From assembly GCF_045037415.1 (NCBI RefSeq), contig NZ_CP173438.1: 64,000 bases of DNA, one strand, 5' to 3'. A program made the translations under genes and the position numbers. The notes beneath the pieces were generated by a model. It had not been told where the DNA came from. It did not search any database and saw nothing but the letters and a program-made list of their open reading frames with translations. Origin of the DNA: Escherichia coli (GTDB lineage Bacteria; Pseudomonadota; Gammaproteobacteria; Enterobacterales; Enterobacteriaceae). The stretch's first letter is position 1, and each line of letters starts with the position of its first letter. Below, piece after piece: positions 45,080 to 58,004 of the stretch.

Positions 45080-45422
45080 AGCAGATCTCTGTCAGTTCTT
45101 TAGTGTTAATCATTGCTGTCAGTTGGGCTTTCGTCAGGAAGGCATAATGCTTTGCAAGTTCACGAAACCCAGCCAGTTCCTGACTATTAATGTTCGACAT
45201 ATCCTGTTTTGCATATAAAAACGTGTAAAACCAATTGCTTCCCCCTTTCGCCAGAATAATTGCACGCTCACGATTTCGGTGAAGGCGCTTTTTAAAAACG
45301 CCACCACCAAGTACATCAGCTTTACCTTGTTCCGTTTCTAAAATGGCCCGGCACAACTCTTCATCTGTTATTGCATGAGACCTGGCTTCCCTTGCAAACC
45401 ATTTGGTTTTAAACACGCGCAT
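45063..45422 (-). CDS. RelE/ParE-superfamily (HigB-like) toxin
   Basis: 119-aa basic ORF directly upstream of and overlapping the HTH antitoxin; toxin-first order is typical of HigB-HigA modules. Confidence 0.6.
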   Translation of the reverse strand: MRVFKTKWFAREARSHAITDEELCRAILETEQGKADVLGGGVFKKRLHRNRERAIILAKGGSNWFYTFLYAKQDMSNINSQELAGFRELAKHYAFLTKAQLTAMINTKELTEICYDCKN

Positions 45423-54264: not shown

Positions 54265-55083
54265 TCAGCGCAGGCTCTCCAGCATCGTTTCTGCCATCAC
54301 CCACAATGCGCGGTTGAGTTTAATATCGGTGTCGATGCTGTGAATGGCCCGGGTATGGATACGTTTTCCTTTTGCACTGCGACCGGAAATCCCGCCTTTC
54401 AGCATATTCTCCTGGATGGTCTGATATGCGCTCCACAGGTCCTTACCGTAATCCTCCCGGCGTCGCGGCGTCAGAATGTCGGCGGTGGTGACGGGCTGAT
54501 GTTCGTCACCATAACGGTAAGTCAGTGCCGCCTGTGCCAGCGCCTGGCGTGCCGGTGGCGGCAGGACCAGCGACTGCATGGCATCACGCTTCTCCTCTAT
54601 CCGGTCAAACACGCCCACCACTTCGTAAGCCCCTTCAATGACTCTGTCCACCACATTTCCCCGGTGCGGAACACGCACTTCCCCCAGAGACTGGCCACAG
54701 ACGCACCCGTTCTGGCAGACGAACCTGAAGTAACCCGGCAGCATCTGATAGCTGGAGGTACCGTCATGAGAGTTGAGCAGAATAATTTCAGGGACATGTT
54801 CTCCGTTTATCTCTCCGGCCCGCCGCAGACGCAGCATGTGTTTGGTGTATTCCCGGCGGCTCTGGTCGCGCACACGGGGCTGGCAGGCGAAGAACGGCTG
54901 AAAGCCTTCCCGCTGCAGATTTTCCAGGACGGTAATGGTGGGAATGTACGCATACCGTTCACTGCGGGAGGTGTGCCGGTCTTCTCCAAAAATACTCGGG
55001 ACGTGGTACATCAGTTCTTCGCGTGTCAGTGGGCGCTCCCGACGGATCTGATTTACATGACCAAAACGACTGGCTAATTGCAT
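54265..55083 (-). CDS. DUF932-family protein (YfjQ/YafZ-like)
   Basis: 272-aa ORF; family assignment from recalled similarity and CP4-like gene order. Confidence 0.6.
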   Translation of the reverse strand: MQLASRFGHVNQIRRERPLTREELMYHVPSIFGEDRHTSRSERYAYIPTITVLENLQREGFQPFFACQPRVRDQSRREYTKHMLRLRRAGEINGEHVPEIILLNSHDGTSSYQMLPGYFRFVCQNGCVCGQSLGEVRVPHRGNVVDRVIEGAYEVVGVFDRIEEKRDAMQSLVLPPPARQALAQAALTYRYGDEHQPVTTADILTPRRREDYGKDLWSAYQTIQENMLKGGISGRSAKGKRIHTRAIHSIDTDIKLNRALWVMAETMLESLR

Positions 55084-55172
55084 ACTTTGCTCCTTATGAA
55101 TGAATTAGCGGTATAAACGAAAAAGCCGCGTCTCCCGGAGAAGACGCGGCCTGATGGATGAAATGAAGACGT

Positions 55173-55406
55173 TTATTGCCTGAGAATTCCCTCACTGGCG
55201 AGATACGAATTTAGCTGTTTTCCGGCATCAGGTTCAAAATTCCAGCACCGCCAGCGTAGCTGCCCTTCGGCATTGCGGATAACCAGCCGGAAATGCGTTC
55301 CCTGGTCATCTTCAATAAGCACATTGCGGTAAGCTGTTGTGACGGCAACCGCCTGTTCGCGTGAGAAAGGGCCTTCGGGCAATAAAACAGGGTGGCAGTC
55401 CGACAT
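55173..55406 (-). CDS. DUF905-family small protein (YkfF-like)
   Basis: 77-aa [56 protein letters not shown]... Confidence 0.55.
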
Positions 55407-55411
55407 ACCGA

Positions 55412-56089
55412 CTATTTTCCGATAAATTCAACGCTGGCGCCGGTGGCATTACCGTCAGCACCAACCGTGACGGTCACTTTGTCGTACGCACGGTCTTCAG
55501 GATTGAATACTTCAAACTCAACCTTATTGCCTTTTACTTCGTAAGAGCCAAAATCAGCGGTTTCTGTTGTTTCCTCGTCATATTCCCGGGCGTATGCCTG
55601 CCGGGCAGCCTGCAGGACGGAATCTTTATTAATAGTGGTCGTCTGTTTCGGGGAAAAACCGGCAAGTGATGTGACAAATTTCGGACAGACCTTCAGCATA
55701 TCACCGCGGGTGAATTCCATTCGTACACCAAATGCCTGTAAAACGGACACATCACGCTCTGCTATGGAGTGAACGGCTTTTTTGACCATTTCCGGCGCCT
55801 GTCCGATTTCCACCTCAACAGCCCTGAATCCCGTCTGCTGATTACACATTTGTGATGTGGGGATCAGGTTACCGTTAATACTGATACGGCTGCCCAGGAG
55901 CGTCTGTACACCATTCGGGCATCCCTGCATCAGGCCAGTAATACCAATCGTGCCATTTTTCAGCATTACCAGCGCCTGACCATCTTCCGTCATGGTCTGA
56001 CACCAGCCGTTTTTGACAGCCCAGTTGCCGGCGGAGGCGGAGAATGATGCCACAGTGAACAGCAGGGGAAAAAGAGCTCTGGTATTCAT
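55412..56089 (-). CDS. predicted secreted protein with signal peptide
   Basis: ORF starting [20 protein letters not shown] (signal-peptide-like), then a Cys-containing mature domain; start trimmed from the track. Confidence 0.5.
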
Positions 56090-56236
56090 GACTGACCTCT
56101 GAAATGAACGTACGGTGTTATTGATAATGATGGAAGGTATGCAGTGACTGTTCAGGGAATGACGTAGCCGTATATTTAGTTTTCTGTTCAACATATTGTC
56201 TCCATACCTGTCGGGACGGCTTTGGCAGGCCGGCGA

Positions 56237-56917
56237 TCACAGGTTAAAGGTGTTGATAAGTTTATGGATGAAAGAGAAATGTGGCAGGGCGGAGATAAAA
56301 CGCTCTTCAGCGACCAGACTGTGGATGTGGCCTCTCCGTTCAAACCGTTCTGATGTCAGGCTGACTGATTTGATATCTGCCAGAGGAAAGACCTGCAGTT
56401 TTCCCTTCTGTAACGCGATCAGATACCAGCTACCGCTGTAATAAATGAGCCGGCAGGGCTCCAGTGACGGATACCATCGCTCAGTCATCAGAGAGATGTG
56501 GATACACTGTCTTATTGCCAGGATGAGTTGCGAGAAACACTCGGGGAACGTTGCAGTGATATCCGGCGCCGGTAGCCAGATAAGGCAGGGAGAGGGCTCC
56601 TGGTTGTCGGTAAGACAGGTTATCAGTCGTCCGTTCCGGAGCGGAAGTATCCGTGCGATCCCGGTATTCTGTATAAAAGAAAGCATTTCAGGGATCGCAC
56701 CTGGGCTGCTCTGTCGTCTGAGACTGTACCGGCCATTTCTGTACTCTAAGTCCAGGTGAACCAGACGCTGATGAAAATCGCGCTGTAAGGTACGTTCTGT
56801 AACACCAAATTCATCTGACAGTGTTTTTAGTGACAGAGATTCTCCGGCCATCAGTCGGCTGATAATGAGTGATAAGCGAACCGCCAGGCGATCATGCCGG
56901 GAACGATTATCAGACAT
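56237..56917 (-). CDS. HTH plus WYL-domain transcriptional regulator (YfjR-like)
   Basis: N-terminal HTH-like region (LSLKTLSDEFGVTERTLQRD) and a C-terminal region resembling WYL-domain regulators. Confidence 0.6.
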   Translation of the reverse strand: MSDNRSRHDRLAVRLSLIISRLMAGESLSLKTLSDEFGVTERTLQRDFHQRLVHLDLEYRNGRYSLRRQSSPGAIPEMLSFIQNTGIARILPLRNGRLITCLTDNQEPSPCLIWLPAPDITATFPECFSQLILAIRQCIHISLMTERWYPSLEPCRLIYYSGSWYLIALQKGKLQVFPLADIKSVSLTSERFERRGHIHSLVAEERFISALPHFSFIHKLINTFNL

Positions 56918-57119
56918 AGATGTGCACTCCGTAAGAAAACATCTTTTATTTCATGATGTTATTATGCATCATGATGTTGAAAGGATGTGTCGCATCCGAA
57001 TAATCAGAAATAAAATGCAGCAGAAAAAATATTCCTTTAATTATCTGATTTTTAAGCAGGGTTTCATAAAAAGAAGAATGCTTGTTAATCCAGCGACACA
57101 TCCTGTCGGCGTGAGTGTG

Positions 57120-58004
57120 TCAGAACAGACGATCCCACAGTGTGACCAGCAAGTGGATAATGCGGTCCCGGGCCTTACGCAGAAGCTGTAACATCCAGGC
57201 CGGAAAGCTGAATTGGGCAACGGCAGCGTCAAAGCTTTTCCCGATGGCGTCACCAAAAGTTTGTTGTGCGTGTTTCCGGGCCTGTTCAGAGCGGTTTTCC
57301 CCCCGGATATGTGAATAAACTGCGCTGGTTGCCTGTGGTGGCAGTGCGTGGATCATCAGCGACACCAGTGCCGGAAGATTCCAGCCGACAGGTGCGGCAA
57401 CGGAGAGTACCGGAAATGATGAAGGGAACAGGGTTGCCACCCGGGCTGTTACTGTTGCCAGTGAGAGTTCCTGCTGACGGGACGGGCATTTTTCTGTGTC
57501 GTTCCATTCTTCAGCAGGAAACACGCGATCGGCATGGCTGAGAACAAACAGAAAACGCGAGGGATCTGCACCTTCATTCAGTAAAAACTGATGCATGGCA
57601 ATATCGGCAGCATACGCACGTTCATCAGCCCGCAGGATCCAGATAATCAGATCCAGTTCCGGCAGTAACTGACGATAAAGCTCCCGGTATTCCTGATCAT
57701 GCTGCGGTGTCTCACCAATGCCGGGCATATCGACCAGCGTCATTCTGCGTTCACCGAGCTGCAGGGTAAGACGATGAGCCTGGCGGGTGCAGCCGTTCAG
57801 GGGATGCGTGGCGCAGATACGGGACTGAAAAATGGCATTACACAGACTGCTTTTGCCGGTGCCGGATTTACCCATAATGCCAATTACGGGCTCGTAATGA
57901 ATAACACCGTGGAGATGTTCAAGGATTTTCTGGCGAATTTCTTCAGGAAGAAACGTCAGATATGATTTTACTTGTGCAGAGAGGGAAGAATGGCTGAATG
58001 ACAT
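57120..58004 (-). CDS. GTPase of the YfjP/YeeP/YkfA family
   Basis: P-loop GIMGKSGTGKSS and DxxG (DMPG) motifs; first gene of the minus-strand CP4-like block. Confidence 0.8.
   Translation of the reverse strand: MSFSHSSLSAQVKSYLTFLPEEIRQKILEHLHGVIHYEPVIGIMGKSGTGKSSLCNAIFQSRICATHPLNGCTRQAHRLTLQLGERRMTLVDMPGIGETPQHDQEYRELYRQLLPELDLIIWILRADERAYAADIAMHQFLLNEGADPSRFLFVLSHADRVFPAEEWNDTEKCPSRQQELSLATVTARVATLFPSSFPVLSVAAPVGWNLPALVSLMIHALPPQATSAVYSHIRGENRSEQARKHAQQTFGDAIGKSFDAAVAQFSFPAWMLQLLRKARDRIIHLLVTLWDRLF

Follow-up and report, generated by a model that had tools for sequence, protein, structure and literature searches.

YfjR of Escherichia coli K-12 is one of the transcription factors of this species whose function is still unknown. 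Its gene lies in the cryptic element CP4-57, flanked by yfjP/yfjQ and by small secreted or lipoprotein genes; it was reported to be strongly expressed with "no evident promoter" and to be associated with a biofilm phenotype (PMC9308461). Genomic systematic evolution of ligands by exponential enrichment (SELEX) identified the yfjR operon as the only target of YfjR (PMC8249747), and chromatin immunoprecipitation with exonuclease treatment (ChIP-exo) detected no YfjR binding in unstressed cells (PMC8464067). Here we examined a relative of YfjR encoded at positions 56237–56917, on the minus strand, of a 64,000-nt stretch of E. coli contig NZ_CP173438.1 (the whole stretch is referred to below as the window). 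The protein showed 43% identity to K-12 YfjR (b2634) over 226 residues (E 2e-53). The region upstream of its gene carries a conserved promoter architecture similar to those described for the activators DriD and PafBC, and the reading that we favour, at a probability of about 55% and largely by analogy, is that a ligand-gated regulator would activate its own three-gene operon from a promoter driven by an operator box.

In mycobacteria, promoters that depend on PafBC carry the motif tGTCgg(N10)tA(N3)T and have no −35 element, which PafBC replaces in what was termed "sigma adaptation" (PMC8635444). DriD binds the site ATACGAC(N7)GTCGTAT, the crystallised site holds GACAGTTACTGTC, and its guanines are read by Arg37 and Arg41 (PMC10853764). 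DriD promoters likewise have no −35 element and hold the site at a fixed distance from the −10 element; in the didA promoter oligonucleotide, which has no −35 element either, CTGTC is followed after 12 nt by CAATCT, and a variant with an "optimised −35" places TTGACA 17 nt ahead of the same CAATCT (PMC13004042). On the other hand, CapW, which is a repressor, prefers a site with TATAAT inside and no GAC-N7-GTC (PMC11662680).

Two copies of a palindrome-like 13-mer, GACA-N5-TGTC, were found upstream of the regulator gene in 8 of 8 diverged loci of the family, and the addition of 30 loci from IMG/VR gave 32 distinct upstream regions. In 31 of the 32, the proximal copy reads GACAYAnCCTGTC, or TCCATACCCTGTC in the K-12 subgroup, and TAnnnT or CATAAT comes after it at a spacing of exactly 12 nt, at 71–96 nt 5′ of the start codon. 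The distal copy, usually perfect, was present in almost every one of the 31 loci analysed, 108–121 bp upstream of the proximal one (mode 111). Only one locus (L022, IMG/VR 2724679355_000005, upstream of 3001) lacked this composite of box, 12-nt spacer and hexamer, and it may be rearranged or have a different true start. No −35-like hexamer was detected, as the best match to TTGACA at a spacing of 16–18 nt was at most 2 of 6 positions and the −35 position falls inside the box. In the window, the right half-site of the proximal box (GACACATCCTTTC) is TTTC in place of TGTC, and the distal box begins 12 nt past the stop codon of the upstream GTPase gene and 116 bp upstream of the proximal box. Transcription is predicted to start near 56954 (Table 1).

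Several counts support the composite as a conserved element. The window's two boxes are the top two matches in all 64 kb to a position weight matrix (PWM) that was built from 21 sites, with these two among them, and the perfect GACA-N5-TGTC pattern occurs three times in the 64 kb versus 0.92 expected. Across 18 non-redundant loci, the box carried 1.30 bits of information per position and the hexamer 1.10, compared with 0.36–0.41 in the flanks, and pairwise identity was 0.76 versus 0.38 in the flanks. The composite was present in 0.6% of shuffled sequences. When spacers of 8–16 nt were compared, 31 loci had the spacer of 12 and 0–1 had any other, and the strict composite pattern was detected once per locus, always immediately upstream of the regulator gene. 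The third-best PWM match in the window (GACATATCCTGTT, 16.2 bits, 45196–45208 on the plus strand) lies inside cadC, near the end of the island that holds the integrase fragment, and is probably a chance match.

Other candidate elements in this region were rejected. A scan of 55000–58400 with the sigma-70 consensus gave 4 sites versus 3.9 expected and was given no weight; the one located between the boxes (57067–57040) is not conserved. In 56951–56978, a 10-mer, AACATCATGA (TCATGATGTT on the plus strand), stands on either side of the −10-like hexamer, accompanied by the palindrome CATCATGATG. These local repeats, with TCATGATGTT occurring twice, were considered as the operator and discarded, being common only to close relatives, while the box is conserved in all subfamilies. 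Locus L009 has a similar ACCTCAT pair around the hexamer, which is absent from more distant loci, and the 10-mer pair could serve as the binding site of a second factor. The distal box does not look like a second or divergent promoter, since no −10-like hexamer was found at 12 nt from it in either orientation in the window; TATAA occurs near the distal box only in L006 and L025.

Table 1. Features of the regulator, its predicted promoter and its flanking genes in the window
Feature	Position	Strand	Basis or details
YfjR-family winged helix-turn-helix (HTH)-WYL regulator, coding sequence	56237..56917	-	ATG-started open reading frame, 226 amino acids, stop codon included
Winged HTH, residues 1-66	56720..56917	-	HTH_11; PADLOC WYL model positions 1-79; AlphaFold2 secondary structure
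WYL domain, residues 125-191: helix and five strands, Sm-like barrel, W164-Y165-L166	56345..56545	-	
Short helical C-terminal tail, residues 196-225, conserved ALPHF	56243..56332	-	AlphaFold2 helices
Shine-Dalgarno GGAG	56927..56930	-	9 nt 5′ of the regulator ATG, read from the sequence
-10-like hexamer CATAAT	56961..56966	-	Exactly 12 nt 3′ of the proximal box
Proximal operator box (predicted), GACACATCCTTTC	56979..56991	-	PWM 16.3 bits, second-best in the window
Distal operator box (predicted), perfect GACA-N5-TGTC, GACACATCCTGTC on the plus strand	57095..57107	.	PWM 20.0 bits, best in the window
YfjP-like GTPase, conserved upstream neighbour	57120..58004	-	MMR_HSR1, E 4.9e-15
Secreted protein of no recognised family	55412..56089	-	RefSeq WP_001097301.1; Sec-type signal-peptide-like N-terminus
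DUF905 gene, last before the terminator	55173..55406	-	PF06006, E 1e-31
Intrinsic-terminator-like hairpin	55123..55152	-	13-bp stem, 8 G-C pairs, T-run

The initial annotation had proposed an HTH protein with a WYL domain, located between a GTPase and a secreted protein, and both the domain assignment and the position were borne out. Pfam PF13280 (WYL) matched residues 152–185 with 23.7 bits, above the gathering cut-off of 21.8, and the PADLOC WYL models gave E values of 2.6e-18 and 3.9e-6, while HTH_11 scored 23.1 bits over residues 14–48, slightly below its cut-off of 25. Single-sequence searches of the PDB sequences, with the full protein or its first 69 residues, returned nothing meaningful, and the family profile was required: a profile of 41 homologues detected PafBC (6sj9) with an E value of 2.8e-8, as the sole PDB sequence match under 1e-3, in an alignment that covers the W-Y-L strand and the R-V-F-x-L loop after it. 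The AlphaFold2 model (mean predicted local distance difference test score, pLDDT, 75) showed three helices and a two-strand wing in residues 1–66, a poorly defined helical linker in residues 67–124, and the WYL fold in residues 125–191 at pLDDT 85–91. The best 27 Foldseek matches in the PDB were all WYL regulators (CapW, DriD, BrxR and PafBC), led by CapW (7tb5, E 2.5e-7) with BrxR (7qfz) also high, and the alignments to CapW, BrxR and DriD span the full length of the regulator. The lack of a WYL fold, which the initial annotation had named as the refuting outcome, was therefore not observed. In the alignment of the 41 family sequences, whose members are 38–89% identical to the query, 35 columns are invariant; these include W164, Y165 and L166 as well as R42, T43 and R46 of the recognition helix (residues 41–51).

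Following the WYL domain, the chain stops after 35 residues, with helices only, and no match to the WCX domain (PF25583) was found in the regulator at E ≤ 0.1. A search of 1.84 billion representative sequences with the family profile retrieved a tight group of about 230 amino acids and then relatives of about 290–300 amino acids, which align from the HTH through the WYL domain and then extend further. Five of six relatives of about 290–330 amino acids scored above the PF25583 cut-off, and the sixth scored just below it. Since the longer relatives carry WCX and the group of about 230 amino acids does not, the YfjR family is a WCX-less offshoot of the WYL regulators, with the short helical tail where canonical relatives have WCX. 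No NCBIfam model matched the regulator. In some tables of E. coli transcription factors YfjR is classed in the DeoR family; this was rejected, as HTH_DeoR scored 15.2 bits versus a cut-off of 21, no DeoR C-terminal sugar-phosphate sensor domain was matched, and the C-terminal half is WYL. The regulator is thus an ordinary WYL member of the YfjR family, and the family is uncharacterised.

In the mechanism that we propose, a dimer of the regulator would bind the boxes, with R42 and R46 reading the G of each GAC/GTC half-site, as Arg37/Arg41 do in DriD and R46/R50 in PafB. At the proximal box, the dimer would stand in for the missing −35 contact and recruit sigma-70 RNA polymerase, so activating the regulator gene itself together with the secreted-protein and DUF905 genes. 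The hairpin downstream of DUF905 is the probable end of this operon. Between the regulator and the gene behind it (56090–56236), the scan that detected this hairpin found nothing resembling a terminator, and within the regulator coding sequence it found one weak 5-pair hairpin (56447–56461). The secreted-protein gene would probably be the first target, and a ligand on the WYL domain probably gates DNA binding. The K-12 reports agree with this reading, both in the missing evident promoter of a strongly expressed yfjR (PMC9308461) and in the single SELEX target, its own operon (PMC8249747). Judged from the conserved boxes, autoregulatory binding is the part we hold as probable; that it results in activation rather than repression is a matter of analogy, and there we lean only slightly to activation.

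Repression is the main competitor. A regulator of the CapW/BrxR type would occlude its own promoter in unstressed cells, perhaps by looping, and would be freed by a WYL ligand, and repression is the described mode of the WYL regulators CapW and BrxR of mobile elements and defence systems (PMC11662680). Several of our own observations suit such a repressor and therefore count against the activation that we favour: the proximal box occupies the would-be −35 position, which is a classical repressor placement too; a pair of operators separated by about 110 bp is reminiscent of repressors that loop DNA; and the best structural match is the repressor CapW. However, no −35-like hexamer is present to be occluded, and the CapW site, with its TATAAT, is of another form. 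In 31 of 32 loci, box and hexamer stand exactly 12 nt apart although the spacer itself differs in sequence, a constraint expected of an activator that touches RNA polymerase and equal to the geometry of DriD and PafBC. Looping between the boxes was also rejected, as distances of 108–121 bp do not correspond to whole helical turns and the boxes are oriented differently to each other from locus to locus. We therefore regard autorepression as rather unlikely.

Further points weigh against auto-activation from the box. The consensus and the PWM were drawn from the same loci in which they were then counted, and these loci share ancestry. The −10 element is a putative one, assigned from its pattern alone. 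The distal box is given no role by this reading, its distances from the proximal box being out of helical phase. A plain alternative for the negative ChIP-exo result is that K-12 YfjR binds no DNA. In addition, the regulator has no WCX domain, the part that helps DriD and CapW to dimerise and that forms some of their single-stranded DNA (ssDNA) pocket, and the columns of Q175 and P178, where loop arginines would be expected, hold R in only 15 and 4 of the 41 family members, respectively.

These last two points bear on the ligand. That the regulator senses a ligand, as the initial annotation suggested for WYL proteins, is something we infer: Y165 of the WYL triplet and F177 are retained and K173 is the sole basic residue nearby, while in the profile alignment to 6sj9 Q175 and P178 stand opposite the two arginines of the R-V-F-R-L loop of PafB. 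The two loop arginines are essential in PafBC (PMC6789036), and the equivalent ones contact ssDNA in DriD (PMC10853764). A single-stranded nucleic acid would be the default guess for the ligand, by analogy, and this is the weakest step of the mechanism because WCX and both of these arginines are missing; ssDNA as the signal is doubtful. By the same analogy, the negative ChIP-exo result is what would be expected of a ligand-gated binder, and PafBC without ssDNA likewise shows no binding (PMC6789036).

Extended to the whole family, the mechanism would make the YfjR proteins WCX-less activators of Enterobacterales similar to DriD and PafBC, whose ligand-loaded WYL domain would be needed to recruit sigma-70 RNA polymerase to a promoter without a −35 element, with ssDNA as a possible signal and a variable gene slot as the output. 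We offer this only tentatively. The ssDNA might come from damage or from island transfer, and the output might be the variable secreted or surface-protein slot, which holds Ag43-like adhesins in some islands.

The gene itself is real, intact and already catalogued. RefSeq has the same coding sequence as WP_001282919.1, "helix-turn-helix transcriptional regulator" (E. coli O25b:H4), and a plasmid copy is labelled "WYL domain-containing protein" in its annotation. The protein is 100% identical in E. coli genomes of the sequence type 131 (ST131) type, the 4.5-kb region around the gene is 100% identical to that of many human E. coli isolates, including O25b:H4, and this region was matched, whole or in part, in 4317 of 5426 complete E. 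coli genomes.

This allele has, nevertheless, its peculiarities. The family's Tyr155, in a P-Y-R-L strand, is near-invariant (38 of 41), and a Cys replaces it in the window protein, in one close relative and in K-12 YfjR. The codon for residue 155 is at 56453–56455 of the window, and K-12 YfjR is encoded at L002:16704–17405. Given that the window protein shares only 43% identity with K-12 YfjR, the replacement of Tyr by Cys appears to be the result of two separate events in E. coli. The activity of the ST131-type allele may be attenuated, since its TTTC half-site has lost the specificity guanine and Y155C is added to this; mutating this guanine cuts DriD binding several-hundred-fold (PMC10853764).

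Such features could also be taken to mean that the regulator is an inert, decaying remnant of a cryptic element, which neither binds DNA nor senses anything. The absence of ChIP-exo peaks for K-12 YfjR (PMC8464067) would suit this, as would Y155C, the absent loop arginines, the degenerate proximal half-site, and the decay of the surrounding island with its integrase fragment, insertion sequences and pseudogenes. However, the open reading frame is intact and of family length, the arginines of the recognition helix and the WYL triplet are among the 35 invariant columns, different genera share the operator and its spacing, and the identical protein is retained in a cluster of 2890 sequences, so that we find a remnant quite improbable. 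The weakest alternative, in which the regulator controls island cargo or defence genes (the gene at 58189–59319 or a restriction endonuclease) and its own operon is not the main target, draws on the frequent proximity of WYL regulators to defence systems (PMC11662680), on the variable genes at 58189–59319 and on an annotated restriction endonuclease about 5 kb off, and is very improbable, given that no box-like site exists in 58005–58188 or elsewhere in the island, that the next-best PWM matches are in cadC or unrelated genes, that PADLOC found no defence system in eight neighbouring proteins, that regulator and boxes move together among islands with quite different flanks, and that SELEX gave the operon of K-12 YfjR as its single target (PMC8249747).

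The initial annotation had tied the regulator to island cargo, to a defence module and to an "orphan" gene at 58189, and none of these links was retained: the only strong operator matches in the 64 kb are the two boxes upstream of the regulator itself, and the gene order around it is conserved across Enterobacterales islands. The gene at 58189–59319 (plus strand) is no orphan, as it aligns end to end with the genes in the same position in other islands (19–21% identity, E 8e-6 to 2e-4, full length). These counterparts are divergently oriented genes of 410–460 amino acids upstream of the GTPase in islands of E. coli, Klebsiella and Serratia, and they share with it an N-terminal C..NC...C..HY motif and a C-terminal LYNSFF motif. 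The window gene has a low G+C content (33–37%) and no family match.

On the minus strand of the window, the GTPase is followed by the regulator, the secreted protein, DUF905, DUF932, an antirestriction gene, RadC/JAB and DUF987, and then by CbeA, CbtA, DUF5983, DUF957 and DUF4942. The same order was found around regulator homologues of 39–68% identity in Klebsiella, Serratia, Pectobacterium and other Enterobacterales, and the same island is also present on a Klebsiella plasmid. Because the order from GTPase and regulator to CbtA is conserved across genera, the regulator is a backbone gene of CP4-57-like integrative islands of Enterobacterales. The GTPase is kept upstream of the regulator in L003–L016, and a DUF932 gene intervenes in L013 and in K-12. 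A prophage origin was rejected, as no regulator homologue was detected among 50,697 phage genomes; among plasmids there were 59 matches to the regulator, and the single plasmid copy examined bears the same island.

The slot 3′ of the regulator is variable and holds YfjT-like, DUF4234, unknown secreted-protein or Ag43-like autotransporter genes. The secreted protein that occupies it in the window matched nothing in Pfam, NCBIfam, PADLOC or PHROG. In a K. pneumoniae island, the slot holds a 1050-amino-acid autotransporter of the Ag43/AIDA type (L013:6755–9907, L014:2677–5832), and slot contents of the Ag43 type may be linked to the biofilm phenotype of yfjR mutants.

The island GTPase showed weak PADLOC similarity to the dynamin-like LeoBC (E 3.2e-8) and LeoA (1e-3), and in L009 a 568-amino-acid dynamin-like protein is encoded a few kb away. 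Around the GTPase start codon (58004), at 57994–58061 on the minus strand, a 16-nt inverted repeat with 88% complementarity pairs the start with its upstream region. The RNA form has a folding energy of −26.2 kcal/mol (z −3.4; 0 of 200 shuffles fold as well), and it might control GTPase translation. At about 61877–63400 of the window (L001 26878–28363), directly beyond a YagK/YfjJ (Gp2-like) gene, RefSeq annotates the restriction endonuclease and a gene for the EAST1 heat-stable enterotoxin in transposase fragments.

The regulator gene is already annotated and is no marker of unusual cargo, and the single point of real interest is the conserved DriD/PafBC-like promoter architecture. With a predicted operator, a promoter layout and a direction, namely activation, a regulator of unknown function becomes directly testable. 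If the favoured reading is true, the promoter mechanism of DriD and PafBC would extend to enterobacterial mobile islands, and a WYL regulator would be able to work without a WCX domain. The wider reading for the whole family, if true, would account for the biofilm phenotype of yfjR mutants and provide a testable mechanism for an E. coli gene of unknown function.

The closest known system is K-12 YfjR itself, which has the same arrangement of winged HTH, WYL and short tail and lies in the same type of island. Its co-oriented neighbours are also those found here, with the GTPase YfjP, the DUF932 protein YfjQ, downstream secreted proteins or lipoproteins, and antirestriction, RadC and CbeA/CbtA-type genes. 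Both promoters have two boxes and the 12-nt spacing. However, the hexamer is TAAAGT in K-12 and CATAAT in the window, the two boxes have the same orientation in K-12 and are inverted relative to each other in the window, and yfjR follows the DUF932 gene whereas the window regulator follows the GTPase gene. With only 43% identity, the two proteins represent distinct paralogous lineages.

CapW and BrxR, repressors of the cyclic oligonucleotide-based antiphage signalling (CBASS) and bacteriophage exclusion (BREX) systems with a winged HTH-WYL-WCX composition, share with the regulator the order of HTH, linker and WYL and the location on mobile or accessory DNA, and the nearest longer sequence relatives of the family (about 290–300 amino acids) have the full CapW/BrxR architecture. 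The regulator differs from them in lacking both WCX and an adjacent defence system, and its box differs from the CapW site in form and in placement relative to the −10 element.

PafBC combines two HTH-WYL-WCX modules, as a heterodimer or as a fusion, and binds one non-palindromic half-site, whereas the regulator is a single small protein with a palindrome-like box, no WCX and no conserved loop arginines. Nevertheless, the PafBC motif can be written as TGTC-N12-TAnnnT, which is the same layout as that of the YfjR-family promoter without a −35 element.

DriD of Caulobacter crescentus is a homodimeric, ssDNA-gated activator with a winged HTH, WYL and WCX. It controls a chromosomal DNA-damage regulon, whereas the predicted target of the regulator is an island operon; the two proteins share about 13–17% identity, the regulator has no WCX, and the ssDNA contacts Arg204 and Arg207 of DriD have no conserved counterpart in it (Q175, P178). 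On the other hand, the operator core of DriD, GAC-N7-GTC, matches the YfjR-family box, and both recognition helices have two arginines four residues apart, R37/R41 in DriD and the invariant R42/R46 in the YfjR family, a correspondence drawn from the R-T-x-x-R pattern common to both. One of the DriD sites lies in the promoter of DriD itself (PMC10853764), as predicted here for the regulator. The layout of the YfjR-family promoter thus matches two structurally solved WYL activators both in half-site geometry and in distance from the −10 element.

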